DNA of 32,000 bases from Methylonatrum kenyense (lineage in GTDB: Bacteria > Pseudomonadota > Gammaproteobacteria > Nitrococcales > Aquisalimonadaceae). Position numbers and translations under genes: made by a program. Shown here in pieces: positions 4,258 to 28,067 of the stretch (positions within the stretch are counted from its first letter, which is position 1; each line of letters opens with the position of its first letter). The notes below the pieces were generated by a model, which saw nothing but the letters and a program-made list of their open reading frames with translations, was not told the DNA's origin and made no database searches. The DNA is taken from positions 4,665-36,664 of the forward strand of contig NZ_JALPKO010000010.1 in assembly GCF_023195885.1 (NCBI RefSeq), in the 5' to 3' direction.

Positions 4258-4359
4258 TTCCGCACTGGAGAACACTTGCTTGACTCGCCGCAGGCGTGCG
4301 AATAAATCAGCGTTTCCTTAAACTTCGCAGAAATACTCAAGCTCCGACGGATCAACCTT

Positions 4360-5301: not shown

Positions 5302-5330
5302 GCAGGCCAGCGGGTACCGCGCCTGCCACC

Positions 5331-5569
5331 GTAGGGTGGGTCAAGCGAAGCGGACCCACGCGGTGTGATCTGCTGGCAGGACGATGCAGGTTTCGGATAC
5401 GAACGGTGTTAGGACAAACCGGGTCAGGGGCGAGCATCGGCGCTGGCGGAGAGCCCGTTGCCCCGATCCTGACGGATTACACTGCGTGCCTTCGCTGCGC
5501 TTAAGGCACCCTACGACCCCGGACGCCCGGCCTGGCGTAGGGTGGGTCAAGCGAAGCGGACCCACGCGG
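5331..5569. repeat. REP cluster A (3 copies)
   Basis: Copies at 5331..5370 (forward, stem GTGGGTC/GACCCAC), 5475..5514 (reverse, stem GTGCCTT/AAGGCAC) and 5537..5569 (forward, truncated tail). Family consensus: GTAGGGTG-N5-AAGCG(A/C)AGCG-N5-CACGCGGTGTGATCC. Confidence 0.9.
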
Positions 5570-5611
5570 ATTTCAGCAGTCAACGCGCCACCGGGCGCAT
5601 GGAGCACCACG

Positions 5612-7260: not shown

Positions 7261-7300
7261 GCCAACAGGCAGGCCGACCGGATTCAACCACCCCGCCAAC

Positions 7301-7684
7301 GGATCACACCGCGCGGATCCGCTGCGCTCGATCCGCCCTACGCGGCCCCAAGCGGCACCGGGCCCTGGGTCGTCCGAAAACCTTACTTGTCCGAAAACCG
7401 TCCTTGTACCGCCCCCGAATTACACCGCGCGGATCCGCTGCGCTCGATCCGCCCTACGCGGCCCCAAGCGGCACCGGGCCGTAATCGGGATTCGTAGGGT
7501 GCATTAAGCGAAGCGAATGCACGCGGTGTGATCCGCCCCGATCGCGGCAACGCGCTCTCGGTTACCACGGCCGCCAGCCCTCACCCCGGCCTTGTCTGGT
7601 CCGAACACCCCCCATGTCCGAAAACCTTCCTTGTCCCGCCAACGGATCACACCGCGCGGATCCGCTGCGCTTGATCCACCCTAC
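7301..7684. repeat. REP cluster B (4 copies plus short GTCCGAAAACC-type repeats)
   Basis: Copies at 7301..7341 (rev), 7418..7457 (rev), 7494..7534 (fwd, GCATT subtype) and 7644..7684 (rev). GTCCGAAAACC motifs lie at 7372, 7389 and 7617, with a further one at 7724 just outside the feature's right edge. Confidence 0.9.
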
Positions 7685-7752
7685 GGCCACCACCGGGGCC
7701 AACACCCGCCGCGACTCAACCTTGTCCGAAAACCTCTCTGTCTCCACACCTA

Positions 7753-7780
7753 TTGACACATGACATGCCCTGACTATCAT
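7753..7780 (+). promoter_or_regulatory. Sigma70-like promoter candidate for groESL
   Basis: TTGACA (7753..7758), a 16-nt spacer, then TATCAT (7775..7780). It lies about 80 nt upstream of groES and abuts CIRCE. Confidence 0.45.
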
Positions 7781-7806
7781 TAGCACTCACTAACGGGGAG
7801 TGCTAA
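7780..7806 (+). promoter_or_regulatory. CIRCE operator (HrcA binding site)
   Basis: TTAGCACTC-N9-GAGTGCTAA read directly at 7780..7806. This is a perfect match to the CIRCE consensus, 55 nt upstream of the groES ATG. Confidence 0.9.
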
Positions 7807-7861
7807 CAGTGCGATCCGTAGCTTTCAGGAAACATGTTCCAACATCCAGGAGAGAGTTCAG

Positions 7862-8152
7862 ATGAACATTCGTCCACTGCATGATCGCGTGATCATCAAG
7901 CGCATGGAAGAAGAGCGCACCAGCCCGGGCGGCATCGTCATCCCCGACAGCGCCACCGAAAAGCCGATTCGCGGCGAAGTGCTGGCCGTGGGCAAGGGCA
8001 AGACCGCCGACAACGGCGACGTGAAGGCCCTGGACGTGAAAGTTGGTGACAAGGTGCTGTTCGGCAAGTACTCCGGCACCGAAGTGAAAATGGATGGCGA
8101 AGAGCTTCTCGTCATGCGCGAAGACGACATCATGGCGGTGATCGAGGGCTGA
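7862..8152 (+). CDS. groES: Co-chaperonin GroES
   Basis: [31 protein letters not shown]...: canonical GroES, 96 aa. Confidence 0.98.
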
Positions 8153-8204
8153 TCGCACTCTCCCGCCCCGCATGATTTCGTATTAACCGTATTCAGAGGA
8201 TTAA

Positions 8205-9863
<1,659 letters not shown>

Positions 9864-9886
9864 GCCGCTTCACCCAACGCCCCACG

Positions 9887-9912
9887 AAACCCCGCTCCGG
9901 CGGGGTTTTTTT
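9887..9912 (+). terminator. Rho-independent terminator of groESL
   Basis: AAACCCCGC-TCCG-GCGGGGTTT hairpin followed by a T-run, 24 nt after the groEL stop. Confidence 0.85.
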
Positions 9913-9966
9913 ATGCGCGCGTGGAAGGTGTAGTGGTAATCGAAAGCCTGTTGCCGTCCGCGTTAC

Positions 9967-10732
9967 GGATCACACCGCGTGCATTCGCTGCGCTTAATGC
10001 ACCCTACGAAAACCGCGCCGGTGCGAGCCGCGTAGGGCGGATCGAGCGCAGCGGATCGGCGTGGTGTGATTGGGGTCGGGACAAGGAAGGTGTTCGGGCA
10101 GGAAGGTGTTCGGACCCGACAAGGCCGGGGACGGGCGTTGGCCGCGGAGGCGGGCGTAGGGTGGGTCAAGCGCAGCGGACCCACGCGGTGTGATCTGTTG
10201 GCGGTATGGATCAACACGGCCTCCTGCCGGTGAGATCTGATGACGGGACAATAAAAGGTTTTCGGACAAGGACATGGTGCGGACGAGGCAGGCTCGGGGC
10301 GGACGTTGGCGGCGGTAATCGAAAGCCTGTTGCCGCGGTCATGGCGGATCACACCGCGTGCATTCGCTTTGCTTAATGCACCCTACGACGAGCGTGTTTC
10401 GTTGCGTAACGGCGCGGGGATGCGGCGTTGGACCCGTCAATCGTCGCCCGGGTTTTGGTGGGACGGCCGGATACCGGCACAAGAAGCACTGTGAAGCCAT
10501 CCCTGACAGCCAGATGATCCCATCCTTGGGATCACCTTTCCTTGCCGATATCCGGCCTAGCACTATTCATAGTTGATCCTTTTTTTCAGTGCAATACTTT
10601 CTGTTAATACTTTGGGGTTACTCCCGGACAGTTGGCGCGGTTCCGCCAGCGCAGACTGAAGCGTCCGCGGGGTCTGGAGCCCGATTAAAGCGGATCACAC
10701 CGCGTGCATTCGCTTCGCTTAATACACCCTAC
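9967..10732. repeat. REP cluster C (5 copies)
   Basis: Copies at 9967..10007 (rev, GCATT), 10032..10070 (fwd, degenerate), 10156..10195 (fwd, GGGTC), 10346..10386 (rev, GCATT) and 10692..10732 (rev, GCATT-like). The flank GGTAATCGAAAGCCTGTTGCC is repeated at 9936 and 10315. Reverse-orientation GGACAAGGAAGGTGTTCGG motifs lie at 10079-10115. Confidence 0.9.
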
Positions 10733-10848
10733 GATGGAACATGTGGTTCCGCTGGCGGTTTTTTTCTGCGTTTCTACCTGGCGTCACCTATCGGAACCGT
10801 CATCACGGTGTAATAATTGCGCTCGTCCACCGCGTTGCGCCGTGAATC

Positions 10849-12813
10849 ATGAGCCTGACTGCCCGACTCGCGAAACTGCCCCGGCCGGCAAAGAAGTCAC
10901 TGATGGTGGCCACCGATCTGGTGATGCTACCCATCGCCGTATGGGCCGCCTTCATGCTGCGCCTGGGCGAGGCATTCCCGCCGGTACTGGTCGAGTTGTG
11001 GTGGCTCCTGATAGCCGTGCCACTGCTGAGTCTGCCCTGTCTGGCTTCAACCGGTCTGTATCGCTCGGTTGTGCGCTACATGGGTCCGCAGGCCGTGTGG
11101 GCCGTGGTCAAGGGCACCACCGTTGCCGCAATCTGCTTCGCCGCGCTGGTTACGCTGGCGCGGCTCGACGGCGTGCCGCGCACCACGTTCTGGCTTTTCT
11201 GGATGATGGCGCTGCTGGGTGTCGGTGGCACCCGGATACTGGCCCGCATGTGGTTCCAGTCTGCGCTGCGCAGTGTTCGGATCCGGCGTGAACCGGTTGC
11301 CGTGTACGGCGCGGGTAATGCCGGGGTCCAGCTTGCCGCAGCGCTGGAGAGTGGCCGTGAGTACCAGCCGAAGGTGTTCGTTGACGATAACCGGTCGATG
11401 CAGGGCACGCTGGTCAACGGGCTGCGCGTACACCATCCGACCGCCCTCAAACACCTGATTCAAAAGCACCGAATCAGTAGCGTACTGCTTGCCCTGCCGA
11501 GCCTGTCGCGGCACCGCCGGCGCCAGATTGTCGAGAGCCTGGAAGAGTTGCCGGTGCAGGTGAAGACGGTGCCGACGGTCACCGATCTGGTGGCTGGCCA
11601 CGCGCGCATCGACGATATCCGCGAGGTCGGCATCGATGACCTGCTGGGGCGGGATCCGGTGAAGCCGTCGATGAAGCTGCTGAACCGCTGCATCAAGGAT
11701 CGTCGTGTTTTGGTAACCGGCGCTGGCGGCTCCATCGGGTCGGAGCTCTGCCGGCAGATTCTGCGCCGCAATCCGCGCACGCTGGTGATGCTGGATCAAT
11801 CCGAGGTCGGGCTGTACCAGATCGAACGCGAGCTGGAGGCCATTGCCACGGTCGAATCGCTTGATACCAGCCTTGTGCCGCTGCTGGGCAATGTCCAGGA
11901 CGAGACGCGTCTTCGTCGGATCATGAAGGAGTTCGCAGTCGAGACCGTGTATCACTCGGCAGCGTATAAACACGTGCCCATTGTCGAGCAGAACCTGCTT
12001 GAGGGCGTGAAGAACAACGTGTTCGGAACCCAGGCGGCGGCCTCGGCGGCAATTGCCTCGGGCGTACGCTGGTTCGTGCTGGTTTCCACGGACAAGGCGG
12101 TTCGGCCGACCAACGTCATGGGTGCCAGCAAGCGGCTGGCGGAACTCACCTTGCAGGCACTCGCCGCCGACACCGGGTCACGCACCGTATTCAGCATGGT
12201 CCGGTTCGGCAACGTGCTGGACTCCAGCGGATCCGTGGTGCCGATTTTCCGGGATCAGATCCGCCGCGGTGGGCCGGTGACGGTTACCCATAGGGACATG
12301 ACGCGGTACTTCATGACCATCCCGGAGGCCGCGAGCCTGGTGATTCAGGCGGGTGCCATGGCACAGGGCGGGGATGTGTTCGTGCTGGATATGGGCGAGC
12401 CGGTGAAAGTGCTGGATCTGGCGCAGCGCATGATTCGCCTGAGCGGTCTGCAGGTACGGGACAAGGGCCATCCCGAAGGCGACATCGAGATCAAGTTCAC
12501 CGGTATCCGCCCCGGCGAGAAACTGTTCGAGGAACTGCTGATAGGCGAGAACGTCACGGGCACCGATCACCCGATGATCATGCGCGCGAAGGAAAAACGC
12601 CTGCCGAAATCGGAAATCGACCGCGTGATGGCGGAATTGCGGCAAGCCGCCGAGACGTTCGACTGCAACGCGGCACACCTGGTGCTGCAACAGGCGGTTG
12701 ACGGTTTCGACAGTCGTCATGGCGTCAGTGACACCTTGTGGCGCCAGTCATTGAGTACCACCCCCGAGGCGGTGATCCCCTTCCCTGCTGACCGCCATAG
12801 CCGCGTCGATTAA
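10849..12813 (+). CDS. Membrane-anchored nucleotide-sugar 4,6-dehydratase/epimerase (CapD/WbpM/PglF family)
   Basis: A 654-aa product with N-terminal TM helices, then VLVTGAGGSIGSELCRQI (Rossmann) and YHSAAYKHVPIVE (YxxxK), typical of WbpM/CapD polysaccharide biosynthesis proteins. Confidence 0.9.
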   Translation: MSLTARLAKLPRPAKKSLMVATDLVMLPIAVWAAFMLRLGEAFPPVLVELWWLLIAVPLLSLPCLASTGLYRSVVRYMGPQAVWAVVKGTTVAAICFAALVTLARLDGVPRTTFWLFWMMALLGVGGTRILARMWFQSALRSVRIRREPVAVYGAGNAGVQLAAALESGREYQPKVFVDDNRSMQGTLVNGLRVHHPTALKHLIQKHRISSVLLALPSLSRHRRRQIVESLEELPVQVKTVPTVTDLVAGHARIDDIREVGIDDLLGRDPVKPSMKLLNRCIKDRRVLVTGAGGSIGSELCRQILRRNPRTLVMLDQSEVGLYQIERELEAIATVESLDTSLVPLLGNVQDETRLRRIMKEFAVETVYHSAAYKHVPIVEQNLLEGVKNNVFGTQAAASAAIASGVRWFVLVSTDKAVRPTNVMGASKRLAELTLQALAADTGSRTVFSMVRFGNVLDSSGSVVPIFRDQIRRGGPVTVTHRDMTRYFMTIPEAASLVIQAGAMAQGGDVFVLDMGEPVKVLDLAQRMIRLSGLQVRDKGHPEGDIEIKFTGIRPGEKLFEELLIGENVTGTDHPMIMRAKEKRLPKSEIDRVMAELRQAAETFDCNAAHLVLQQAVDGFDSRHGVSDTLWRQSLSTTPEAVIPFPADRHSRVD

Positions 12814-12867
12814 AGATTCGCGGACGCGGCGGATCCAACCGGCGAGCCCCGCACCGGCGCGGTTTTC

Positions 12868-12908
12868 GTAGGGTGCGTTAAGCGCAGCGAATGCACGCAG
12901 TGTGATCC
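12868..12908 (+). repeat. REP copy (single)
   Basis: GTAGGGTGCGTTAAGCGCAGCGAATGCACGCAGTGTGATCC, forward orientation, with one G:T-type mismatch in the stem. Confidence 0.85.
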
Positions 12909-13036
12909 GAATCGGCGATGGGAAACCGCCTGACGGCTCCACGCCAACTCATTCGGTGGGATCCGACTTATACCGCAGAAGCCCAGCCCCTTGGGGCGAT
13001 CCCGCGGCAAAGTCGCCGGCAAACACTAAACAACGC

Positions 13037-13062
13037 AAAAAACGGCGGCCCGAAGACCGCCG
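13037..13062 (-). terminator. Rho-independent terminator of the acidic lipoprotein gene
   Basis: CGGCGG-cccgaaga-CCGCCG hairpin. On the minus strand it is followed by TTTTTT (the plus-strand A-run at 13037..13042), about 30 nt past the stop at 13091. Confidence 0.75.
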
Positions 13063-13090
13063 CTTTCACTCTCACATGAAGTAGTGCCGG

Positions 13091-14344
13091 TCAGTTGCCC
13101 AGCAGGCCCCCGAGTAGATCATCGATCAGACCACCGAGGATGCCGTCCACCAGACCAAGCAGGTCGGCCAACAGGTTGCTGTCAGCTTCCAACAGGTCCC
13201 CCAGGACCTCGCCGAGCGGACTGTCGTTATCGAGGATGTCTTCCAGCAGTCCCGCATCCAGCAGGTCCAGCGCGTCCGTCCCCAGCAGGTCTTCGACAAC
13301 ACCTTCCACCGATTCGGTCAGCGTCTCGAGAATCTGATCCGGATCACCGCTCTGCAGCGCCGCGCCAACATCGTCCAGGATCGCCTGGACGCCGGCCAGG
13401 GCATCGTCGTCGACGATGTCATCGAGTTCACCGTCGAGTCCCAACACGTTGTTGAGTAGACCGTCGAGCAAATCCTCGATCAAAACGCCGGTGGCTTCGA
13501 GCACATCCCCGAAGAACTCGTTGCCGTCAATCAACTCGACCACCGCAATGGTGTTCAGGACCGTGGTGTTTACGACTTCGATCAGGTTTCGGTAAAGGTC
13601 GGCAGTTTCCTCGTTGCCCGCGATCTCAGCCCGCAGGTCCTCGGTCAGAACGGAGAGCTCCTCAAGCACCTCCTGCAGCGCATTGACAGTGGTGATGTCC
13701 GCGAACGTGTCTCCGCGCGCGAAGAGGATCAGATCGTCAAGGCTATCGAGCCCGATGTCGTCGATCTCATCCGGCGCAGCGACCATCTCGCCGCAAGTCC
13801 CGCTTCCGCCGAGGGCCAGCAGCAAGCCGTCCAGGAACCGGTTGGTGGCGACATCCAGTTGCCGCCCGGCATCCACTGCCGCCTCGTCCAGATCGGCGAC
13901 GTTCTGCTGATGCTGATAATCGCCCAGAAATGTGGCAAGCAGCGCGTCCGGCGAATCGACCAGCGCCGCAAGCCCCTGCGAAATGCAGACTGTGCCGTCG
14001 GCCAGGTCGTCTTCCGCGCCGGTACCGGTATCCAGATCGCGGATGATTCCCTCGGCAAGAATGTCTTCGAGCAGGAAGGCCGTCAGCGTCTGCGCCGGGT
14101 CCAGCGGCCCGGCGAGACCTTCCGGCGCATCGCCGTTGTCCCCGTCGCCATTCTCGCCGTTGCCGTTGTCGCCACCGTTATCGCCGTTGCCGTCCAGGCC
14201 GTCATCGCCATTCTCAACCTGGCCATTGTCGTCGCCGCTCCCGGACGAGCTGCTGCCGCCGCTGCTGCTGCCGCCGCATCCGGCCAGTGCGAGCGGCACG
14301 GCCAGTGCAAGGCAGAGCAGTAGGTATCGAACAGATGTATTCAT
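13091..14344 (-). CDS. Secreted lipoprotein, extremely acidic and lysine-free, with a G/S/D/N-rich N-terminal low-complexity region
   Basis: MNTSVRYLLLCLALAVPLALAGC is a lipoprotein signal with an L-A-G-C lipobox. GGGGA lies just upstream of ATG 14344 and a terminator lies downstream. The rest is D/E/L/G-rich, and I find no K anywhere in the translated ORF. Confidence 0.7.
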   Translation of the reverse strand: MNTSVRYLLLCLALAVPLALAGCGGSSSGGSSSSGSGDDNGQVENGDDGLDGNGDNGGDNGNGENGDGDNGDAPEGLAGPLDPAQTLTAFLLEDILAEGIIRDLDTGTGAEDDLADGTVCISQGLAALVDSPDALLATFLGDYQHQQNVADLDEAAVDAGRQLDVATNRFLDGLLLALGGSGTCGEMVAAPDEIDDIGLDSLDDLILFARGDTFADITTVNALQEVLEELSVLTEDLRAEIAGNEETADLYRNLIEVVNTTVLNTIAVVELIDGNEFFGDVLEATGVLIEDLLDGLLNNVLGLDGELDDIVDDDALAGVQAILDDVGAALQSGDPDQILETLTESVEGVVEDLLGTDALDLLDAGLLEDILDNDSPLGEVLGDLLEADSNLLADLLGLVDGILGGLIDDLLGGLLGN

Positions 14345-14377
14345 TGTCCCCACCCCTGTTTTCGTTTTCCGTTAGCC

Positions 14378-14397
14378 AGCGTGTCAGCTGACACGCT
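14378..14397. promoter_or_regulatory. Perfect 20-bp palindrome upstream of the lipoprotein gene (candidate operator)
   Basis: AGCGTGTCAG|CTGACACGCT read directly. It is 34 nt upstream of the ATG at 14344 on the minus strand. Confidence 0.35.
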
Positions 14398-14604
14398 TAA
14401 GTCCGACGCTATACGGAGGCGGGCCGTTTGGATGCGCCTACTTTAGGGGTCGATCGAAAGGCGTAATCCCGACAACAAATTGACGCTTTGCCAAAGAGTT
14501 ACGAGCAAGGCCAGGCAGGACAAGGGGTGGCCGTCAGCCGCCAGACCACGGCCAGGCCGCGCACAATGGGAGTGCAGGGGTGAGACGTACGTCTAAAGTA
14601 TTGC

Positions 14605-14705
14605 GGACACCGCGCGGGTCCGCTGCGCTTGATCCACCCTACGAAAGCTTGGCCGGCTCGGGCCGCGTAGGGTGGATCAAGCGCAGCGGATCCACGCCGT
14701 GTCAT
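14605..14705. repeat. REP cluster E (convergent pair)
   Basis: Copies at 14605..14642 (rev, hybrid stem GCGGGTC/GATCCAC, mismatched) and 14667..14705 (fwd, GGATC subtype), separated by 24 nt. Confidence 0.85.
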
Positions 14706-14795
14706 TCGGCCAGAAGATAGGAAAAAGCCTGCGGCCAACCACGCCATCGGAGTCCAGTCCGTTGGCGACAAGCGAGCGCCGGAACGCGAACCGAA

Positions 14796-15206
14796 CTAGA
14801 TAAGCCCCGACATCGCTTTCGCGAATTGGCGGAAATCTTCCAGGCCCGCGTGGCTTATGCCATGAACGATGGCCCAGTTGATGTCCTGATACTGGTGAAC
14901 AGCCACATTGCGGAAGCCGACCGCAGCACGCATCCGGTCTCTGACCTCCGGTGTGATTACGCCTTCCGCGGCCAGAAGGTCGAACGCTTCGCCCATGGAT
15001 TGCGGCGCTGGCTGGTCGGTGTCGCTTAGCACATGTGCTGCCATATGCACGCAGAGTTGTACTGCCCGGCTGATGTTCAGGCTCAGGATATCCTGCCGGT
15101 CTGGGTCCTCCGCCAGGGCGTCGGCCGACGCAGCACGTTTTTCCTCAAGCCGTCTGACGCAGCGACGTAACGACTCCAGCTTTTCCGCCAGGATCACGGA
15201 ATCCAT
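14796..15206 (-). CDS. hepT: HepT-type HEPN toxin (DUF86 family)
   Basis: A 136-aa product with the R-x4-H HEPN motif in GFRNVAVHQYQ. It overlaps the upstream nucleotidyltransferase gene by 13 nt. Confidence 0.85.
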   Translation of the reverse strand: MDSVILAEKLESLRRCVRRLEEKRAASADALAEDPDRQDILSLNISRAVQLCVHMAAHVLSDTDQPAPQSMGEAFDLLAAEGVITPEVRDRMRAAVGFRNVAVHQYQDINWAIVHGISHAGLEDFRQFAKAMSGLI

Positions 15207-15604
15207 GCGTTACGACGCTCTTGAAGCATTCGACTGCGGTAGGGTTCGAAGTCGGCGTTATCCAGTAGCATTCTGGAGACAAGCCCGGCGTAAGCCGCCT
15301 GATCCTTGCACAAAATCCGTTTTCCGCCAGCCAGCGCGGACCGCAGGACCGGAAGCCCGGCGGTGCGCAAGTCCACCAGATCCACCGGCCGGCCTGCTTC
15401 CGCTGCCAACTGCCGAATCAGGCGTGCGCGCCGTTCGGCTGACAAGGGTGACCTGCCAAGCACTGCGACATCCAAATCGCTCTCGGGACCATGGTGACCG
15501 GAACCAACAGAACCGAAAACAATTGCCACCAGGACGTTCTCGTCCGCCGAGACCACTTCACGGACACGGTCGAGCACCATCGTCGAATCGCGCAACTCGC
15601 TCAT
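15194..15604 (-). CDS. mntA: MntA-type minimal nucleotidyltransferase antitoxin
   Basis: MSELRDSTMVLDRV...VAIVFGSVGSGHHGPESDLDVAV carries the GSxxxG...DxD nucleotidyltransferase motif. The start is set at ATG 15604, because the upstream part of ORF 15194..15739 is REP sequence. Confidence 0.85.
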   Translation of the reverse strand: MSELRDSTMVLDRVREVVSADENVLVAIVFGSVGSGHHGPESDLDVAVLGRSPLSAERRARLIRQLAAEAGRPVDLVDLRTAGLPVLRSALAGGKRILCKDQAAYAGLVSRMLLDNADFEPYRSRMLQERRNAWIP

Positions 15605-15644
15605 GCCCGGAGTATACAGGCTCGCTCGGTGCCGGATCGCCAAG

Positions 15645-15882
15645 GGATGACACCGCGCGGATCCGCTTCGCTCGATCCACCCTACGAACACATCGTCGAC
15701 TGCCAGCCTCGTAGGGTGCATTAAGCGGAGCGAATGCACGCGGTGTCACCCCTCATGATGTTGGCAACAGGCTCTCGGTTACCACGCCACCACGGCTTTC
15801 CCTGGCTGTGTCTGGTCCGAAAACCTTCGTTGTCCCGTCCCTGATCACACGGCGCGGATCCGCTTCGCTCGATCCACCCTAC
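15645..15882. repeat. REP cluster F (3 copies)
   Basis: Copies at 15645..15685 (rev), 15711..15750 (fwd, GCATT, followed by the GGCAACAGGCTCTCGGTTACCACG flank also seen at 7545-7570) and 15843..15882 (rev, preceded by GGTCCGAAAACCTTCGTTGTCCC). Confidence 0.9.
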
Positions 15883-16013
15883 GAAGACAACGTCTCGCAA
15901 CCGGGGGCCAACTCCACTAGGCTTGCTTTGAATGCAAATAAAAAGGTGCCATGCCACTATCGCGGCCTTCGCCCGCAACACCGCAAATAACGACAATCAC
16001 GAATCACGCCGCC

Positions 16014-16574
16014 ATGCCACGACAGATAAACCACCTGCCCGTCCTCGCGATTATCGTTATCGCGCTCGTCACCATGAACGCTACCCATGCCGATGACCGA
16101 TTCCCTGAAGTGGAGACCAGCATCGGCGTCGGCCTCGCGGCCGGCATGCAGACGTATGATTCCGGTGGCAGCAATGGCACCAGCGGCGCGGTTCAGATCA
16201 CCTACCGCGCGCTGATCGAGAACGACTGGGATGGCCGCTGGCTGTTCGAGCTGGGTTTTGAACATGCGCGCTCGCTCTCCAAGCCGGAAATCCCGGACGA
16301 GGGCCGTGACCGGCAGATCACCTCGAACGGCATCTTCTACCGGCAGAGCTGGGTGAGTCAGGGTGGATTCTACGTCGGCGGCCGGTTGGGCATCGCCCGG
16401 GTTCGCGGTACGCGTGAAAAGCGGGGCGAACTTGATATCGTTGTCGGTCTGCAGGGCGGCTACCGTTTTACTGACCGATTCGAGGCAGGCATCGAGGCCG
16501 TGGTGGCCGAACCCAGCCTCGGTGACGGCATCAAGCCAGGCGACCTGCGCGGCGTTGTTACCGTCAGCTTCTAA
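16014..16574 (+). CDS. Small outer-membrane beta-barrel protein (OmpW/OmpA-beta-barrel-like)
   Basis: MPRQINHLPVLAIIVIALVTMNATHA is a signal peptide. It is followed by alternating hydrophobic beta-strand patterns and a C-terminal ...VVTVSF (terminal Phe). Confidence 0.6.
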   Translation: MPRQINHLPVLAIIVIALVTMNATHADDRFPEVETSIGVGLAAGMQTYDSGGSNGTSGAVQITYRALIENDWDGRWLFELGFEHARSLSKPEIPDEGRDRQITSNGIFYRQSWVSQGGFYVGGRLGIARVRGTREKRGELDIVVGLQGGYRFTDRFEAGIEAVVAEPSLGDGIKPGDLRGVVTVSF

Positions 16575-16603
16575 ACCCTATAAGGCGCTGCGATTCTGCC
16601 AGC

Positions 16604-16840
16604 GGATCACACCGCGCGGATCCGCTGCGCTCGATCCGCCCTACGAAGCCGGCAGCCGCTCGCTCCGGCCTTGCGTGGTGCGAACACCTTTCTTGTCCGA
16701 AAACCTTCGTTTCCCCGCCAACAAGTCACACCGCGCGGATCCGCTGCGCTTGATCCGCCCTACGCGGTACCACGCGGCACCGGGCCGCGATCGGGATTCG
16801 TAGGGTGTATTAAGCGCAGCGAATGCACGCGGTGTGATCC
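16604..16840. repeat. REP cluster G (3 copies; includes a composite doublet)
   Basis: Copies at 16604..16644 (rev), 16724..16763 (rev) and 16800..16840 (fwd, GCATT-like). The stretch 16724..16840 is collinear with 7418..7534, including the spacer ...CGGCACCGGGCCG..ATCGGGATTC. Confidence 0.9.
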
Positions 16841-16936
16841 CGTAGAATGTGGTGCCATCACCCGCCGTCTTGCGTAACCTCCAGAACACGACTACCCTTC
16901 CGTTCACTCATTGAACAAACGCCTTGGTGCCCCCCC

Positions 16937-17278
16937 TTGCTCACCGATGACCTCCGCTTCAAGGCCCTGAAGCATGTGCAGGACAACCCGCAGCTCACCC
17001 AGCGCGAACTGGCGGGGCTGCTGGGCGTGAGCCTGGGGCGCACCAACTACTGCCTGCAGGCGCTGATCGAGAAGGGCCTGCTCAAGGCGGCCAACTTCCG
17101 CAACAGCAAGAACAAGCGGGCGTATATGTACAAGCTCACGCCCAGCGGGCTGCGCGAGAAAACCGCCCTGGCGGTTCGTTTCATCAAGCGCAAGGAACTG
17201 GAACGACAGGCGCTGCTCGGCGAGATCGCCGAATTGCAGCGCGAACTTGAGCAGCAGCCGGCGGAGGAAAAAGCGTGA
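16937..17278 (+). CDS. EPS-associated MarR-family transcriptional regulator
   Basis: LTDDLRFKALKHVQDNPQLTQRELAGLLGVSLGRTNYCLQALIEKGLLKAANFRNSKNKRAYMYKLTPSG matches the small MarR_EPS-type winged-helix regulators. There is no in-frame ATG, so a TTG at 16937 is proposed as the start (uncertain). Confidence 0.75.
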   Translation: MLTDDLRFKALKHVQDNPQLTQRELAGLLGVSLGRTNYCLQALIEKGLLKAANFRNSKNKRAYMYKLTPSGLREKTALAVRFIKRKELERQALLGEIAELQRELEQQPAEEKA

Positions 17279-17775
17279 AACGCTGGTACGCCGCACAATG
17301 CAAGCCGCTGCAGGACGAACGTGCCGAATTCAACCTGGCGGCGCAGGGTTTCGAGGTTTTGCGGCCGCTGGCCAAGGTCCGCAAACGTCGCCGCGGCAAG
17401 GTCTGCACGGTCATCGAATCGCTGTTCCCGCGTTACCTGTTCGTGCATCTGGACGATGTAGCCGAAAACTGGGCGCCGATCCGTTCAACGCTTGGTGTCG
17501 CGGGGCTGGTTCGCTTTGGTGGCCGGGCCGTCGCGGTGCCCGGACGGATGATCCACGACATTCGCTGTCGCCTGCAGGGCACAGATTGCTGTGTCGATCT
17601 CACCGGCCAGAATACGATTGCGCCGGGCACGAAAGTGACCATTGAAACCGGGGCCTTCGCCGGCCATGAGGCGATCTTCCACGCAAGAAAGGGTGAGGAC
17701 CGCGTGATCGTGCTGCTCAACATCATGCAGCAGACGCAACGTATCACCCTCGACGAAGCCGCCATCGCCCGATAA
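17275..17775 (+). CDS. rfaH: RfaH-like NusG-family transcription antiterminator
   Basis: MKRWYAAQCKPLQDERAEFNLAAQGFEVLRPL...ESLFPRYLFVHLD is the NGN domain. It is followed by a KOW-like GTKVTIETGAFAGHEAIF. The GTG start overlaps the upstream stop (GTGA). Confidence 0.85.
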   Translation: MKRWYAAQCKPLQDERAEFNLAAQGFEVLRPLAKVRKRRRGKVCTVIESLFPRYLFVHLDDVAENWAPIRSTLGVAGLVRFGGRAVAVPGRMIHDIRCRLQGTDCCVDLTGQNTIAPGTKVTIETGAFAGHEAIFHARKGEDRVIVLLNIMQQTQRITLDEAAIAR

Positions 17776-17798
17776 CGCGGTTGGCTTTTAGGGGGTTC

Positions 17799-18190
17799 GT
17801 AGGGTGGATCAAGCGCAGCGGATCCACGCGGTGTGATCCCCGTTGGGAAGCCCCCGGCAGCGTAGGGTGCATTAAGCGAAGCGAATGCACGCGGTGTGAT
17901 CCGTCCCGAACGGCGCCACGCCGGCAACACCGCAATTTCATGGGGGTACACCCCAGGCGGTAGCGTGCCCGAACAAAAAATATCGCCGCCCAATAGCCCG
18001 GGCCCCATGGCTAAAATTGGCCCTCGTAGGGTGGATCAAGCGAAGCGGATCCACGCGGTGTACGCCGCCATGAAAATGCTCCAACGCCCGCGGTCCACGG
18101 CGAACCCACGCGGTGTCATCCGTACGAATTATCCCGCGCATCAGGCCCGCGCAGGGTGCATTGAGCGCAGCGAATGCACGCAGTGTGATC
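17799..18190 (+). repeat. REP cluster H (4 forward copies)
   Basis: Copies at 17799..17839 (GGATC), 17862..17902 (GCATT), 18026..18063 (GGATC, start of a ~100-bp composite unit ending about 18120) and 18151..18190 (GCATT-like). Confidence 0.9.
17956..17967 (+). promoter_or_regulatory. ops element (RfaH recruitment site), exact 12-mer
   Basis: GGCGGTAGCGTG read directly on the + strand, identical to the E. coli ops consensus GGCGGTAGnnTG. It lies 181 nt downstream of rfaH, and all downstream genes to 30345 are on the + strand. Confidence 0.7.
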
Positions 18191-18236
18191 AGCCCGGAAT
18201 CCGCTCCGGCCAGCAAGCAGCCCAAATCACGTGACT

Positions 18237-18285
18237 GTATATGTCAACAACATATACACGCGCTATACTCAAGCGTATATCGAGC
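18237..18285 (+). promoter_or_regulatory. Candidate vapBC promoter/operator (inverted repeats)
   Basis: GTATATG-N7-CATATAC (18237..18257), then TATAC-N6-GTATA (18265..18280) with a TATACT -10-like hexamer at 18264..18269. This is directly upstream of vapB. Confidence 0.4.
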
Positions 18286-18304
18286 ATCAGACGGTAAATG
18301 CGCG

Positions 18305-18535
18305 ATGAGCCAGGCAAGCATCTTCATGAACAACCGCAACCAGGCCGTGAGGCTGCCAAAGGACATGGCGCTGCCCGATGGCGTCCGTCGGGTGGAGGTG
18401 CGGCGTATCGGTCGGGCGCGGCTGATCACGCCTGTTGACGCCGGTTGGGACGACTTTTTCGACGGCCCCGGGGTGAGCGACGATTTCATGTCCGACCGCC
18501 AGCAGCCTCCTGCCCAGGCGCGTGACGACCTTTAA
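18305..18535 (+). CDS. vapB: VapB-type antitoxin (AbrB/SpoVT-like)
   Basis: MSQASIFMNNRNQAVRLPKDMALPDGVRRVEVRRIGRARLITP is a typical VapB/VagC N-terminal DNA-binding domain. The start is set at ATG 18305. Confidence 0.85.
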   Translation: MSQASIFMNNRNQAVRLPKDMALPDGVRRVEVRRIGRARLITPVDAGWDDFFDGPGVSDDFMSDRQQPPAQARDDL

Positions 18536-18570
18536 ATAACCGCCCGGCAGGCTGAAACAGGGAGCGTTTC

Positions 18571-18975
18571 ATGCTGCGCTACATGCTGGACACCAACATC
18601 TGCATTTACGTGCTGAAGCAGCGTCCGCCACAGGTCCGTGACCGATTCAACCGGCACGCTGCACAGCTTTGCACATCGTCCGTTGTTGCTGCGGAACTGT
18701 ACTACGGCGTCGAAAAATCCAGCGCCCCGGCCGGCAATCTTGAACAGGTGGAAGGTTTCCTGGCCCGGCTCGACGTTCTGCCGTTCGATACCCGTGCTGC
18801 CGGGCACTTCGGGCAGATCCGCGCAGCGCTGGAGTCCGACGGGCAGCCCATCGGTGCCTACGATTTCATGATCGCCGCACACGCCCGAAGCCAGGGGCTT
18901 ACCGTCGTCACCAATAACACGCGCGAGTTCGACCGCGTTGGTGGCCTACTGGTCGAAAACTGGGTGCAGGCCTGA
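18571..18975 (+). CDS. vapC: VapC PIN-domain toxin
   Basis: MLRYMLDTNICIYVLKQRP...VVAAELYYG...AYDFMIAAHARSQGLTVVTNNTREF carries the PIN acidic residues. 134 aa. Confidence 0.9.
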   Translation: MLRYMLDTNICIYVLKQRPPQVRDRFNRHAAQLCTSSVVAAELYYGVEKSSAPAGNLEQVEGFLARLDVLPFDTRAAGHFGQIRAALESDGQPIGAYDFMIAAHARSQGLTVVTNNTREFDRVGGLLVENWVQA

Positions 18976-19027
18976 CGCGCCTCACACCGCGCGTACGGGT
19001 CCGGCGCCACCATCGCCCGCGGCCCGC

Positions 19028-19124
19028 GTAGGGTGGATCAAGCGCAGCGGATCCACGCGGTGTACTCCGCCACGAACATGGTCCACCGCTCATGGTTCAC
19101 GGCAAATCCACGCGGTGTGATCCG
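19028..19124 (+). repeat. Composite REP unit (REP plus GTGTACTCCGCC...ATCCACGCGGTGTGATCC extension)
   Basis: Collinear with 18026..18120, 20406..20499 and (truncated) 23096..23165. Confidence 0.85.
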
Positions 19125-19152
19125 TAACGAATGTGAACCCCCGGGAGGCGCC

Positions 19153-20385
19153 ATGCGTACCCAGCTCCTGAAACTGCTATCGCCCATCGCCGCAGCTTTA
19201 GCCCTGACAGCATGTCTCAGTGGCGGTTCCAGCGGATCTTCGTCTCCGTCATCCGGCTGCGAAAGTTTCGAAAACGCCGACCGCATCACCGACGGTGGTG
19301 AGGCTGCCGGTGAGGCGTTCTCGGTGGAACTGCTTGCAGGCTGCCTCGAACACCCCTGGGCACTGGCCTTCCTGCCCGGTGGCGACGAGGCACTGGTTAC
19401 GGAGCGTCCAGGACGTCTGCAGCGCGTCTCCCTGAGCGGCGACGGTGTGATGACGGAAATCGCCGGCGTTCCCGAGGTCGCCGCTGGCGGCCAGGGTGGC
19501 TTATTGGACATTGCCCTGCACCCGGATTTCGCGAACCAGCCCTACGTGTATCTCACCTACGCTGTGTCGAACAGCGAGGGAGAGCTGACAACCGAACTCG
19601 GTCGAGGGCGACTGGAACCCGGCTCCGACGAACTGACCGACTTTGAGGTGCTATTTACCGCAACACCGTTCACCGATGTCCGGGACGGGCATTTCGGTTC
19701 CCGCATCGTCATTGACGGCAACGACAGGCTTTTCATGACAGTCGGTGACCGGCGAGACCCGGACAGCGCGCAGGACCTCAATGGCCATCACGGCAAGGTT
19801 CTCCGCCTGAACCTGGATGGATCGATACCGGCCGACAACCCGTTCACGGACAATGACGGCGAGACAATGGCCATCTGGTCCTATGGTCACCGCAACACCC
19901 AGGGCATGGCCATCAATCCGGCCACCACGGAGATTTGGATAGCCGATCACGGGCCCCGCGCCGGCGATGAAGTGAACATCCTGCCGGTCGCGCCGACCAC
20001 CGACAGCAACTACGGTTGGCCGGAAGTGAGCTACGGGCGCACCTACGGTAGTGATGAACCCTTCGCCCCAGATCCGTCACCGGGCGATGGTTTCATCGAA
20101 CCGATCTACTTCTGGGACGAGGAATCATTCGCCCCGTCCGGCATGAGCTTCTATGAAGGCGATGCATTCCCGGCCTGGCAGGACAGCGTGTTTATCGGCT
20201 CGCTCGTGCAGGAAAACCTGACCCGACTGGAGCTTTCCGGCGACACGATCATCGACGAACAGGCACTGCTTGAGGAAGAAGGTTGGCGAGTCCGCGACGT
20301 CCGCGAAGGCCCCGATGGCTTCCTTTATCTGCTGGTAGACGAAGCCGACGCGCCCTTGGTACGCCTGACCCCAGCCGTCGAATAG
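19153..20385 (+). CDS. PQQ-dependent soluble sugar dehydrogenase (YliI/sorbosone dehydrogenase family) lipoprotein
   Basis: MRTQLLKLLSPIAAALALTAC is a lipobox signal. Further motifs: HPWALAFLPGG, GGQGGLLDIALHPDF, HFGSRIV, HHGKVLRLNLDGSIPADNPF, YGHRNTQG and NYGWPEVSYG. The start is set at ATG 19153, because upstream ORF sequence is REP. Confidence 0.85.
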   Translation: MRTQLLKLLSPIAAALALTACLSGGSSGSSSPSSGCESFENADRITDGGEAAGEAFSVELLAGCLEHPWALAFLPGGDEALVTERPGRLQRVSLSGDGVMTEIAGVPEVAAGGQGGLLDIALHPDFANQPYVYLTYAVSNSEGELTTELGRGRLEPGSDELTDFEVLFTATPFTDVRDGHFGSRIVIDGNDRLFMTVGDRRDPDSAQDLNGHHGKVLRLNLDGSIPADNPFTDNDGETMAIWSYGHRNTQGMAINPATTEIWIADHGPRAGDEVNILPVAPTTDSNYGWPEVSYGRTYGSDEPFAPDPSPGDGFIEPIYFWDEESFAPSGMSFYEGDAFPAWQDSVFIGSLVQENLTRLELSGDTIIDEQALLEEEGWRVRDVREGPDGFLYLLVDEADAPLVRLTPAVE

Positions 20386-20405
20386 CCCCGTAGCCTCGTC
20401 ATCTC

Positions 20406-20499
20406 GTAGGGTGGATTAAGCGAAGCGAATCCACGCGGTGTACTCCGCTATCGAAATGGTCCAACGCCCGTGTCACGGCGGATCCACGCGGCGTCATCC
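20406..20499 (+). repeat. Composite REP unit (GGATT subtype)
   Basis: GTAGGGTGGATTAAGCGAAGCGAATCCACGCGGTGTACTCCGC...GGATCCACGCGGCGTCATCC. This is the last REP before the AT-rich leader of the phosphonate cluster. Confidence 0.85.
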
Positions 20500-20640
20500 G
20501 TCTCGGAAAAGCAACCCTGAACAGAGACATTTCGACTGACCACCTATTGCGGATGCTATTCCCCAACAATAGCGCCCAAAATATCGTGTTTTTATTTCAA
20601 TTTAATGAACCAACAACCTGCAAAGTGAGACCTCAATAAC

Positions 20641-21957
20641 GTGACTGACCAAGGAAAAACCGTTTACGTCGGCATGAGCGCCGACCTCGTCCACCCCGGC
20701 CACCTGAACATTTTGTCCGAGGCTCGCAAGCTCGGCCGCGTGGTGGTTGGCCTGCTGACCGATAGGGCCATTGCCAGCTACAAGCGCCTGCCACACATGA
20801 CCTTCGAGCAGCGCAAACAGGTGGTTGAAAACCTCAAGGGTGTCGATGAAGTCATTGCCCAGGACACGCTGGATTACGTCCCGAACCTCCGGCAAGTCAA
20901 ACCCGATTACGTGGTGCACGGTGATGACTGGCGTCAGGGTGTGCAAAAGCAGACCCGGCAGCGGGTGATCGATGCCCTTGCCGAATGGGGTGGCGAACTG
21001 GTTGAGGTGGCGTACACGCCCGACATCTCTTCCACGCAATTGAACACCAGCGTGAAGTCCTACGGCGTCACGCCTGGCCAGCGCTTGAGCCTGCTTCGCC
21101 GCATCATCGACGCCAAGCCTCTGGTGCGTTTCATGGAAGCTCACAATGGCCTCACCGGGCTTATTGTCGAGAACATCCATGAGGACAAGGACGGCCAGCG
21201 TCTGCAATTCGATGGCATGTGGCTCTCCAGCCTTACCGACTCCACCGCCAAGGGAAAACCGGATATCGAGGCGGTGGACGTTACCTCCCGCATGCAGACG
21301 CTGAACGACATCGTCGAGGTGACCACCAAGCCGATCATCTATGACGCCGATACTGGAGGGCGGCCCGAACACTTTGCCTTTACGGTGCGCACGCTGGAAC
21401 GCTTTGGCGTGTCGGCCGCCATCATTGAGGACAAGGTGGGCGCGAAAAAGAACTCGCTGTTCGGCACCGAAGTGGCTCAGACCCAGGCCACCATCGAAGA
21501 GTTCTGCGAGAAGATCGAGGTGGGCAAGCGGGCAAAGGTCACCAGCGACTTCATGATCATTGCCCGCATCGAGAGCCTGATCCTGGACAAGGGTCTCGAT
21601 GATGCCGTGGAGCGTGCCAGAGCCTACATCGCCGCCGGTGCCGACGGCATCATGATCCACAGCAGGCAGAAGACCGTCGATGAAATCGCCGCGTTCTGCG
21701 CCGAGTTCAGCAAGTTCGACACCAAAGTGCCATTGATCGCCGTGCCCTCCAGCTACAACCACGTTTATGACCATGAGTTGGAAAAGATGGGCGTGGATGT
21801 CGTGATCTACGCCAACCAGCTTTTGCGCAGCGCCTACCCAGCCATGCTGGAGACCGCCCGCTCCATCCTCACCAACGGCCGATCCCAGGAAGCCGATGAC
21901 CGGTTGCTGTCGATCAAGGACGTGCTGACCCTCATTCCGGAGGGGGACTGGCTGTGA
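20641..21957 (+). CDS. Bifunctional cytidylyltransferase-domain / phosphoenolpyruvate phosphomutase fusion (Fom1-like architecture)
   Basis: The N-terminal ~130 aa carry [20 protein letters not shown] (HxGH) and [10 protein letters not shown] (RTxGISTS-like), as in TagD-type cytidylyltransferases. The C-terminal ~300 aa carry the PEP mutase signature [21 protein letters not shown] start at 20641 is assumed. Confidence 0.85.
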
Positions 21958-23099
21958 TTTCACCCAAGGCATTCTATGAAGCATTGGCCGAGAGTGGCGT
22001 CAACTTCGCGGTCGGCGTGCCGGATTCCCTGCTCAAGGAATTCTGCGCCTTCGCCGACGCTGCACTGCCCGCAGATCGACACCTGATCGCCGCCAACGAA
22101 GGTACCGCGGTCGGCATCGCAGCCGGCGTGCACTTGGCCACGGACGGTATCCCGCTGGTCTACTTGCAGAACTCGGGTCTGGGCAACACGGTGAACCCGC
22201 TGTTGTCGCTGGCGGACAAGGAGGTCTACGGCATTCCGCTGGTGCTGCTGATCGGTTGGCGCGGCGAACCCGGCGTCAAGGACGAACCCCAGCACGTCAA
22301 GCAGGGGCGCGTTTCCCCGGCCATGTTGGAGTCAATGGAAATTCCGTTCGAAGTGCTGGACGGCAATGCCCAGGAAGCCGACCGCATCGCCCGCGCCGCC
22401 GTTGAGAAGGCCCGAGAGCGCAGCGCTCCGGTTGCAATCCTTGTACGCAAGGGCGCGTTCGGCAAGGCGGAAGAACTCCGCCAGCCGACGCCGCGCGGTG
22501 ATGACCTGTTGGAGCGGGAACAGGCCATTGAAGTAGTGACCGGCACCCTGCCACCCGCAGCCACCGTCGTTTCCACCACCGGCCACATTTCGCGGGAACT
22601 CTATGAGCAGCGCGAACGGGCCAGCCAGGACCGCGCAAGTGATTTCCTTACGGTCGGCTGCATGGGGCACTCATCGCAGATTGCCTTGGGCATCGCGCTG
22701 ACCAAGCGCGATTCACCGGTAGTGTGTCTCGACGGCGATGGCGCGGCGCTGATGCACATGGGCGGCCTCGCCACCGTCGGCACCAGCGACGCGGAGAACT
22801 TCGTGCACGTGGTCCTGAACAATGGCGTGCACGGCTCGGTGGGGGGCCAGCCCACGGTCGGTTTTGACATCAGCCTCACCGATGTGGCCCGTGCCTGCGG
22901 CTACAAGACCGTTCTGGGCCCAGTCACCAGCGAAGCCGATATTCGCAACGCCGTTACCGAACTCCTCCAGGCCAAGGGCCCCACGTTCCTGGAAGTCCAC
23001 GTCAAACCCGGCGCCCGCGCCGACCTCGGCCGCCCAAAAGAAACCCCGGCCGAAAACAAGCGCCTTTTCACCGAACGCCTCAGGAGCATCTCTTCGTAG
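21954..23099 (+). CDS. Phosphonopyruvate decarboxylase (ThDP-dependent)
   Basis: A 381-aa product. [30 protein letters not shown] is a typical Ppd/AepY/Fom2 N-terminus, and the ThDP motif [11 protein letters not shown]...[13 protein letters not shown] is present. A 4-nt ATGA-type overlap with the mutase gene. Confidence 0.88.
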
Positions 23100-23165
23100 G
23101 GTGCATAAGCAACGCGAATGCACGCGGTGTACTCCGCCAAAATGGAACCATCCAACCCACGGATA
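23096..23165 (+). repeat. Composite REP unit (truncated) between ppd and the ADH gene
   Basis: GTAGGGTGCATAAGCAACGCGAATGCACGCGGTGTACTCCGCC.... The ppd stop codon TAG (23097..23099) lies inside the REP 5' end. Confidence 0.8.
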
Positions 23166-23175: not shown

Positions 23176-24367
23176 ATGCCCGAACTAGATGACATCAAAC
23201 CACCATATTCCCCGGCAAAATCCTGGTCCTTCCACAACCCGGTGCGCATCCACTTCGGCCGCGACGTACGCGCCAAACTGCCCGAGGAAATCGGTAGCCG
23301 CCGTTGTTTGATCGTCTCAACCCAACGCGGCCGAAAGCAATTCACCGAGGATCCACACCTGGGAGCAATTGCCGCCGCCACCGGCCACAACTGGCTGGAC
23401 ACTGTTACCGAAAACCCAGGCCTGCATTACCTGCAAGGGGAAATCGACCGTCTGGCGGGCAAGCCCTTCGACGCCATCATCGCCTTCGGGGGCGGCAGCG
23501 CCATGGACGCAGCCAAGGTACTGGCCATCGCCTTGTCCGACGCCGGTACGGGGAAAACCCTGGCAGACCTGCTTGCCAACCCGGATCTGCACAAGGATGC
23601 CCAGCCAAAGCCTGTGTACGCGATCCCCACCACGTCAGGTACCGGCAGCGAGGTAACACCCTTTGCCACGGTGTGGGACCACGAAACCAAGAAAAAACAC
23701 TCCCTGGCGGGGCCTGCAATGTTCCCCCATGCGGCCTATGTGGACCCGGCGCTGACCGACACTGTGCCACCTGAAGTGACACTTTCCACAGGCCTGGACG
23801 CAATCAATCAGGCCGCAGAGTCCATCTGGAACAAGAACGCGATCCCGATAACCCTGGATTTCGCCACCCGGGCGCTCCAACTGGGATTCGCTGCACTTCC
23901 CAAGCTGTTTGAGGGAACCGGCGGACAGGGAGAGCGGGACCAGATGAGCGAGGCTAGCCTGTTAGCCGGGTTGGCGATCAGCCATACCCGGACTGCCTTG
24001 TGCCACTCGATCTCGTATCCGCTCACCGCGCATTTTGGAGTGCCTCATGGGTTGGCGTGTGCGTTTACCATGCCTGCAGTTTTAGAGCTAAATGCGAACT
24101 TTGATGACGGGCGATTGGAAAGGTTGGCGCAACAGTTATTGGCGAACAATGCAGAGCTGACTTTGTTAACAACGGAATTTCGCCGACTTAATGAGAAGGT
24201 TGCTGTCTCCAGTATTATCAAAGATTACTGCGGGACGATCGAAAATATAAAGAATCTTTGTGCGGAAATGTATACTCGAGGACGGTCTGATCAAAATATG
24301 ACCAACGTTGATCAGAGTGTGCTTTTGTCGTTAATCGAGAGCGCTTGGTTCTCAAGGACACTTTCCC

Positions 24368-24378
<11 letters not shown>
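23176..24378 (+). CDS. Group III iron-containing alcohol dehydrogenase, probable phosphonoacetaldehyde reductase (PhpC/FomC-like)
   Basis: GGGSAMDAAK and the His-rich CHSISYPLTAHFGVPHGLA motifs of Fe-ADHs. It is positioned directly after the mutase and decarboxylase. Confidence 0.75.

Positions 24379-28067
<3,689 letters not shown>

Follow-up and report, generated by a model that had tools for sequence, protein, structure and literature searches.

A canonical ops element and an abutting stem-loop beside a cis-encoded rfaH, ahead of a phosphonate/Kdo glycan cluster of Methylonatrum kenyense

The 32-kb stretch of Methylonatrum kenyense DNA analyzed here (32,000 nucleotides; hereafter, the window) carries, shortly past an rfaH gene that is coupled to a gene for an EPS-type MarR regulator (MarR_EPS), an exact copy of the ops element which, judged by its conservation in related loci, is a genuine, evolutionarily conserved loading site for RfaH. 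Comparison of loci likewise indicates that MarR_EPS, rfaH, a hairpin, and ops constitute a conserved cassette, which borders polysaccharide clusters on their 5' side in many nonenteric Gammaproteobacteria of several orders. By analogy with the enterobacterial system, we consider it probable that the ops element and its stem-loop are a working third part of the MarR_EPS-rfaH cassette, serving antitermination through vapBC and a glucose/sorbosone dehydrogenase (GSDH) gene into the ppm/Kdo operon. RfaH, ops, and JUMPstart are textbook knowledge for enterobacteria, and the RfaH/ops switch itself is known; what appears to be new here is that a canonical ops is combined in cis with an rfaH whose product has a noncanonical reading head.

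RESULTS AND DISCUSSION

An exact ops element downstream of rfaH

The 12-nt consensus of ops is GGCGGTAGnnTG, which includes G5, T6, and the T11-G12 pause dinucleotide, and the 12-mer of the window, GGCGGTAGCGTG, agrees with it at all positions. The element lies at positions 17956 to 17967 of the + strand and is the sole exact copy within the 32-kb window. The rfaH stop codon ends at 17775, leaving a gap of 180 nt to ops, and a further 2673 nt separate the 3' end of ops from the start of ppm (20641). The original prediction of an exact ops 12-mer on the + strand just past an RfaH-like gene is hence borne out. The ORF and domain map also confirms that ops is on the nontemplate strand for rightward transcription and that the genes up to 30345 (the credible ones lying between 18305 and 30345) are all on the + strand. 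A pause at T11 of this element (17966) would be expected by analogy with E. coli.

As had been claimed, such an element is not to be expected by chance; the expectation for an exact copy of GGCGGTAGCGTG per window is 0.02 by dinucleotide shuffles and 0.009 by base composition, and it falls to 4e-5 for the + strand of the 300 nt after rfaH. Matches to ops with one or two mismatches are, in contrast, at the chance level (6 found in the window versus 3.9 expected), and hence only the exact copy carries weight.

The RfaH protein and its MarR_EPS partner

The rfaH gene (17275 to 17775, + strand) begins with GTG, has a GGAGG 6 nt upstream of this start, and encodes a protein of 166 aa that is recognized by the RfaH equivalog HMMs (TIGR01955, 154.1 bits against a cut-off of 144.5; NF006534, 126.2 bits against 124), whereas it reaches just 35.9 bits on the NusG model TIGR00922, whose cut-off is 135.7. 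The Pfam NusG NGN domain occupies residues 2 to 97. In a phmmer search of the PDB sequences, E. coli RfaH is the best match (2e-23, versus 7e-07 for NusG), and a Foldseek search with the AF2 model gives 8phk_P, an RfaH on an ops-paused complex, as the top match. That model, built from a 42-sequence alignment, has its C-terminal domain (CTD) as a beta-barrel (pLDDT 87, pTM 0.64), a prediction by which AF2 cannot decide fold switching; with the CTD predicted as a beta-barrel, activation of this protein at ops through a switch of fold would be conjectural. An exact-sequence look-up of the window RfaH returned no contig on record.

The GTG of rfaH (17275 to 17277) overlaps the TGA of the preceding MarR_EPS gene (17276 to 17278) by 4 nt (GTGA). 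The latter gene, on the + strand, probably extends from a TTG at 16937, a start chosen as in the gene call of a close relative (L081), to 17278 and encodes a winged-helix regulator of 113 aa, in a frame that is open from an ATG at 16847. The regulator scores 141.9 bits on TIGR04176 (cut-off, 88), contains the Pfam domains HTH_24 and MarR_2, and is 71% identical to its counterpart in L081. The overlap and the TIGR04176 match agree with the proposal that rfaH is translationally coupled to an EPS-type MarR gene. Comparable scores of 142 to 157 bits are seen for the partners in five other loci (L016, L024, L070, L083, and L087), while 200-aa MarR_EPS-like forms and the gene of L089 fall below the cut-off, at 62 to 73 bits.

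Four side chains of E. coli RfaH, K10, H20, R23, and R73, contact ops (PMC5995543). Of these, the window RfaH keeps K10 alone, the others being replaced (H20N, R23A, and R73L), with Q24 and T72 also retained; K10, Q24, and T72 scarcely vary, if at all, among the fetched RfaHs (L001 to L087). Two of the substitutions are enriched among the RfaHs with a cis-linked ops, N20 being present in 21 of 27 and L73 in 16 of 27, as against L73 in just 4 of the 51 without a cis-linked ops. The ops-reading head therefore differs from that of E. coli RfaH, although ops itself is invariant. The autoinhibition of E. coli RfaH is enforced by E48, I93, and F130 (PMC7593976); all three are present in the window RfaH, as is R138, and E48 is absent from 9 of the 27 RfaHs with a cis-linked ops.

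Conservation of the cassette across RfaH loci

Loci from species-representative genomes (80 in number and 1.2 Mb in total) were fetched via an alignment of RfaH homologs. They contain 25 copies of the exact 12-mer on the rfaH strand and 0 on the other strand. Of these loci, 72 extend downstream for 1.5 kb or more, and 21 of the 72 have ops no more than 2.5 kb after rfaH, versus an expectation of 0.01 to 0.03. The usual position is 55 to 900 nt downstream of rfaH and ahead of a polysaccharide operon, in one of two gene orders: MarR_EPS, rfaH, ops, and operon; or rfaH, a 200-aa MarR_EPS-like gene, ops, and operon. Seventeen loci have a MarR_EPS-like gene adjoining rfaH, and an ops element is present in 16 of them. 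The genes directly after ops code for Polysacc_synt_2, Ugd, NeuB, Wzz, an epimerase, or ABC exporters, and the hosts include Spiribacter, Spongiibacteraceae, Chromatiales, Arenicellales, Sulfurifustaceae, Wenzhouxiangella, and Thiotrichaceae, among others. No ops was found near rfaH in the closest GTDB representatives, Thioalkalivibrio and Aquisalimonas, or in most Ectothiorhodospiraceae MAGs, and a search of the closest relatives (L001 to L020) with the covariance model R1 revealed no divergent ops except in L007 and L011.

These data bear on the notion that the 12-mer is an accident of GC-rich intergenic DNA. The chance-level frequency of its near matches would suit such an origin, but the very low expectation at that position and strand and the exact conservation at the same relative position in relatives do not; the comparative data already refute a chance origin, and we give it practically no credence.

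A covarying hairpin abuts ops

In the centroid fold, a stem-loop, TGGGG-GTACA-CCCCA (17941 to 17955, + strand), directly abuts the 5' side of ops. The same TGGGG...CCCCA hairpin, with other loops, is found in L081, L083, L089, and L095, and when the 34 nt preceding ops are folded to minimum energy, 32 of 32 distinct instances give a hairpin whose 3' end falls between -2 and +2 of the element. In an alignment of 16 sequences, 82% of the cells are paired, compared with 24 to 51% when the partners are slid; both sides change in 9 of the 10 stem pairs, and such values are attained in 0 of 500 shuffles. An alignment of 35 sequences fitted to a covariance model agrees with this covariation. The stem ranges from 5 to 10 bp, its sequence and the loop being free to vary among elements, and G-U pairs are common in it, to the point of being the commonest pair at one position. 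The covariation together with the frequent G-U pairs therefore fits a single-stranded structure of the + strand and not a duplex operator.

These features also weigh on another reading of the site, namely, that the hairpin and 12-mer are bound by MarR_EPS or some other regulator of duplex DNA rather than by RfaH. One could cite for it the five loci (L046, L056, L062, L089, and L095) in which a MarR_EPS-like gene lies directly 5' of ops with no adjacent rfaH, the ops of the first three sitting further from rfaH, as well as the lack of conservation of the ops-reading residues of RfaH. However, the 12-mer is throughout the E. coli RfaH site, inclusive of the RfaH-contacting bases that are unneeded for pausing (PMC5995543); it is not palindromic and shows a strict strand bias (25 to 0). 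Moreover, the arms of the stem are free to change and contain G-U pairs, a latitude that an operator for a protein would not have. We regard a duplex operator as very improbable and RfaH as the probable reader of the site.

At the Rfam gathering threshold, there is no match in the window and no JUMPstart in 15 related loci. Below the gathering score of 35 for JUMPstart (RF01707), the window reaches 16.4 bits and L033 reaches 20.4 bits, and such matches cover just the ops half of the element; the E. coli rfb and waaQ leaders, used as controls, score 60 and 55 bits. Conversely, the covariance model R1 does not recognize the stem of the E. coli JUMPstart and matches only in the ops half. The JUMPstart stem-loop was noted by Weinberg et al. 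in 2010 (PMC2864571), and in the rfb and waaQ leaders it comprises a 5-bp stem and a loop of 8 to 9 nt, followed by a 1-nt spacer and then ops. The elements studied here share this geometry, and the hairpin and ops of the window together probably form a divergent JUMPstart-type element.

The 3' end of the stem is 11 to 12 nt before the T11 pause position. A hairpin-to-pause spacing of 11 to 12 nt is typical of hairpin-stabilized pauses, and by this analogy the hairpin might have a role in pausing. In two loci, a sigma-70-like -35/-10 pair, discerned by eye, ends a few nucleotides before the hairpin (L016, 10520 to 10580, TTGCAG-17-TGTAAT; L035, 10745 to 10790, TATAAT); in such loci, the transcript may begin with the hairpin and ops themselves. 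We also observed polysaccharide regions with two hairpin-ops elements, each preceding a gene block of its own (L089, 5079 to 5090 and 9950 to 9961; L058, 10662 and 12243).

Constant cassette, changing neighbors

In L081, whose RfaH is 87% identical to that of the window, the order is an OMP gene, MarR, rfaH, REPs, ttggggtacaccccaGGCGGTAGCGTGcccgaaca, and then a gene for an AAA ATPase. In L083 to L085, with an RfaH that is 73% identical, groEL, MarR, and rfaH are followed by TGGGGagccacaCCCCA-AGCGGTAGCGTG and then by PDDEXK_3, Ugd, OMP, a REP, and vapB; the VapB of L084, which there follows the OMP gene, is 98.7% identical to that of the window. Thus, in these loci, the hairpin and ops are kept after MarR-rfaH while the next genes are swapped and vapBC shifts relative to ops. 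The intactness of ops and hairpin across lineages with different downstream genes argues for continuing selection. The OMP gene and REP-vapB are adjacent in L084, downstream of ops (3904 to 4845), whereas the window has its OMP gene (15951 to 16574) and REP-vapB (18148 to 18535) separated by the MarR-rfaH-ops cassette. From the gene orders, it seems that the cassette or its neighbors has moved by rearrangement near REPs.

Further loci were collected with Ppm as the query. The original prediction had suggested looking in related genomes for an ops directly preceding the glycan genes where vapBC or the dehydrogenase is absent, and this is precisely what is seen in L089 and L095 (Ppm 84% and 82% identical, respectively), in which an exact ops is 39 and 63 nt before ppm-ppd-FeADH, a MarR_EPS-like gene directly precedes the hairpin-ops, and neither vapBC nor the dehydrogenase is present. 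The linkage is not universal, however, because ppm has no nearby ops in L092 or in Halorhodospira (L093 and L094). In L088, Ppm is 100% identical to that of the window and the same leader follows right after a REP composite, but the contig begins 230 nt before ppm, inside this composite, and is hence uninformative on the upstream region. Further downstream on this Logan contig (1 to 11546), the genes differ and include Methyltransf_21 and a LicD-domain polymerase of 1237 aa; the difference from the window looks like a strain-level exchange of cassettes inside the glycan cluster.

The DNA between ops and ppm

The region between ops and ppm is punctuated by repeats. A 106-nt REP composite occurs in exactly three + strand copies in the 32 kb, at 18019 to 18124, 19021 to 19126 (87% identical to the first), and 20399 to 20504, thereby bracketing vapBC and the GSDH gene, as had been noticed in the form of direct units of about 100 bp around each. 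The core REP, CGTAGGGTGGATCAAGCGCAGCGGATCCACGCGGTGTGA, is a palindrome of 38 to 45 nt that recurs in both orientations, more than 20 times in all, in nearly every intergenic region from 5330 to 23143, and two copies (17788 to 17911) stand in the gap from the end of rfaH to ops; these, along with 7293 to 7342, 9965 to 10070, and 16595 to 16841, exemplify it. Being so widespread, the core REP tells nothing of insertions; the 106-nt composite alone does.

The toxin-antitoxin pair vapB (18305 to 18535) and vapC (18571 to 18975), both on the + strand, scores 109 bits (NF040493) and 178 bits (NF010285). A sigma-70 promoter is predicted for it at 18241 to 18269 by a promoter scan; a palindrome, gtatatgtcaacaacatatac, at 18238 to 18262 overlaps this promoter and is likely the VapB operator. 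The gene that follows codes for a soluble glucose/sorbosone (PQQ-type) dehydrogenase (19033 to 20385, + strand; PF07995 GSDH, 1e-119, residues 105 to 444), whose true start is probably downstream of 19126, since that of the ORF is inside the REP. A second toxin-antitoxin module, a HepT/MNT (nucleotidyltransferase) pair, is on the - strand at 14796 to 15739, such that HepT/MNT and vapBC flank the regulator cassette. A 268-aa + strand frame, orf268 (14908 to 15714), was rejected as a gene, the - strand there encoding the HepT/MNT pair.

The suggestion that vapBC and the dehydrogenase gene are secondary insertions gains support from L089 and L095, which lack them, and from the contexts in L081 and L084, where different genes after ops and a vapB located elsewhere fit a status as accessory insertions. 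On this comparative evidence, both most likely entered the stretch from ops to ppm at a later time. A scan for promoters and terminators found vapB's as the sole promoter and none for ops; the terminator-like sites were weak, and on the + strand from ops to ppm no convincing intrinsic terminator was detected. The third REP composite is followed by a 136-nt AT-rich leader before ppm (20505 to 20640), which could carry a promoter of its own.

It could consequently be argued that ops is a relic, which once abutted ppm and was uncoupled by the insertion of vapBC and the dehydrogenase gene; the glycan operon would then use its own promoter in 20505 to 20640, ops would serve at most vapBC and GSDH, and RfaH would act elsewhere. 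The separation of 2.67 kb, the predicted promoter of vapBC, the AT-rich leader, and the retention of this leader right after the REP composite in L088 are all compatible with such a history. Against this, the 12 bases and hairpin are intact here and in L081 and L083 to L085 despite their different downstream genes, no strong + strand terminator lies between ops and ppm, and E. coli RfaH remains bound for whole operons (PMC7819879). A relic ops hence appears unlikely to us, and we favor an ops that still works for the genes beyond the insertions.

The glycan cluster and its surroundings

The cluster opens with a cytidylyltransferase-PEP mutase fusion, Ppm (20641 to 21957; TIGR02320, 396 bits, and Pfam), which is followed, all on the + strand, by genes that Pfam identifies as a phosphonopyruvate decarboxylase-like TPP enzyme (Ppd-like; 21954 to 23099) and an Fe-alcohol dehydrogenase (23176 to 24378), and then by a 960-aa TagF-like/KpsC-S-like protein, a glycan polymerase by its domain matches (24368 to 27250), KdsA (27183 to 28067), a KdsB-HAD phosphatase fusion (28085 to 29374), and KpsF/KdsD (29371 to 30345). 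The G+C content declines from about 62% to 43 to 47% at 24 to 28 kb, across the 960-aa polymerase-like gene and kdsA, and is 40 to 48% at 30 to 32 kb. By composition, the distal glycan genes look like products of horizontal transfer, and the cluster looks like a mosaic; AT-rich distal genes are typical of RfaH targets (PMC7593976). The Ppm fusion (20641 to 21957; P0128 and P0129) shares 83% identity with its counterpart from a bacterium of another phylum, Desulfurivibrio alkaliphilus, and this suggests a recent transfer among haloalkaliphiles. Upstream of groES/EL, at 5384 to 7260, are genes for a KdoO-like Kdo hydroxylase and a Kdo/WaaP-family kinase; as predicted from sequence, these point to a modified inner core in a maker of Kdo-containing glycan.

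A proposed path of antitermination and its implications

Taking these findings together with what is established for E. coli, we propose that a rightward RNA polymerase would transcribe the hairpin and pause at T11/G12 of ops, whereupon the nontemplate strand of ops would fold into a small DNA hairpin. RfaH made from the gene just upstream would then bind this ops hairpin and the polymerase, displace NusG, and stay bound, with the consequence that pausing and Rho-dependent termination would be suppressed over the next 12 kb or more. The path would here lead through vapBC, the dehydrogenase gene, and the three REP composites and then into the ppm-ppd-adh/Kdo operon with its AT-rich, foreign-looking distal half. 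For this genome we infer the pausing, the loading of RfaH, and the read-through of 2.7 kb into ppm; control of the ppm/Kdo cluster by ops is likely, and it too is what we infer because 2.67 kb of probably inserted DNA intervenes.

It is still an open question in the field how RfaH-like factors are recruited when their genes adjoin those of their targets. In the conserved cassettes, ops follows rfaH by 55 to 300 nt or comes directly behind a MarR_EPS gene that follows rfaH; on a speculative reading of this placement and of the geometry of a hairpin-stabilized pause, the polymerase would be held just past rfaH while fresh RfaH loads onto the same complex. One could then see in the cassette an antitermination module that loads itself and stands between the cis-acting NusG paralogs proposed as ancestral and the trans-acting E. 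coli RfaH, a speculation that we advance tentatively and consider less likely than not. If it were true, cis-encoded RfaHs would not be independent of ops, and, with cis-linked RfaHs mostly having N20 and L73 while ops is invariant, recognition of ops would be older than the E. coli reading head and would use other contacts. A canonical ops with a covarying hairpin right after a cis-encoded rfaH offers a testable counterexample to the ops-independent recruitment in cis that is proposed in a 2026 bioRxiv preprint (PMC13015549), and the RfaHs without H20 and R73 offer another; together, they form a natural series for asking which contacts read ops. In practical terms, the MarR_EPS-rfaH-ops cassette marks where hypervariable surface-glycan loci of uncultured haloalkaliphiles begin on their 5' side, the locus being the phosphonate/Kdo cluster in the present case.

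Comparison with known systems

In E. coli and Salmonella, RfaH acts at ops in the JUMPstart (RF01707) of the rfb, waa, kps, hly, and tra leaders, the 12 nt being identical to those of the window. The window shares with E. coli a nontemplate ops before a long polysaccharide operon, a stem-loop ending 0 to 1 nt before ops, an RfaH that passes the equivalog HMM, and AT-rich distal target genes. However, the E. coli-type rfaH is a stand-alone gene that is unlinked to its targets, whereas that of the window is 180 nt upstream of ops and coupled to MarR_EPS; the element of the window is without the conserved 5' box and loop of the E. coli JUMPstart (16 to 20 bits, versus 35), and its RfaH has H20, R23, and R73 replaced.

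A second parallel is offered by RfaHs that are encoded in cis. Wang et al. 2020 (PMC7593976) describe RfaH clusters CL2 to CL8 as neighboring envelope genes, with CL4 neighboring an HTH regulator, and the 2026 preprint (PMC13015549) proposes that cis-encoded, putatively monomorphic RfaHs of Idiomarina and Pseudidiomarina act without ops; both papers favor a recruitment in cis that does without ops. The window resembles both sets in having rfaH by a long LPS/polysaccharide operon with an HTH neighbor, in missing some of the ops-binding residues, and in the beta CTD of the AF2 model, but it differs from them in that a canonical ops is conserved just downstream and E48, I93, and F130 are kept. 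In the parts consulted, neither paper reports an ops beside a cis-encoded rfaH, and our literature searches (MarR with RfaH and ops; TIGR04176) met with no description of the MarR_EPS-rfaH-ops cassette.

Finally, UpxY of Bacteroides, LoaP of Bacillus, and TaA of Myxococcus are NusG paralogs that are encoded in the operons that they antiterminate. The signals that recruit them are located in the leader 5' of the paralog gene and are not known to be ops, and the window RfaH is far under the UpxY and LoaP cut-offs (68 bits versus 100 and 44 versus 125, respectively). Like UpxY, LoaP, and TaA, whose genes head clusters for polysaccharides or secondary metabolites, the paralog of the window is encoded at the head of the cluster that is presumably under its control.
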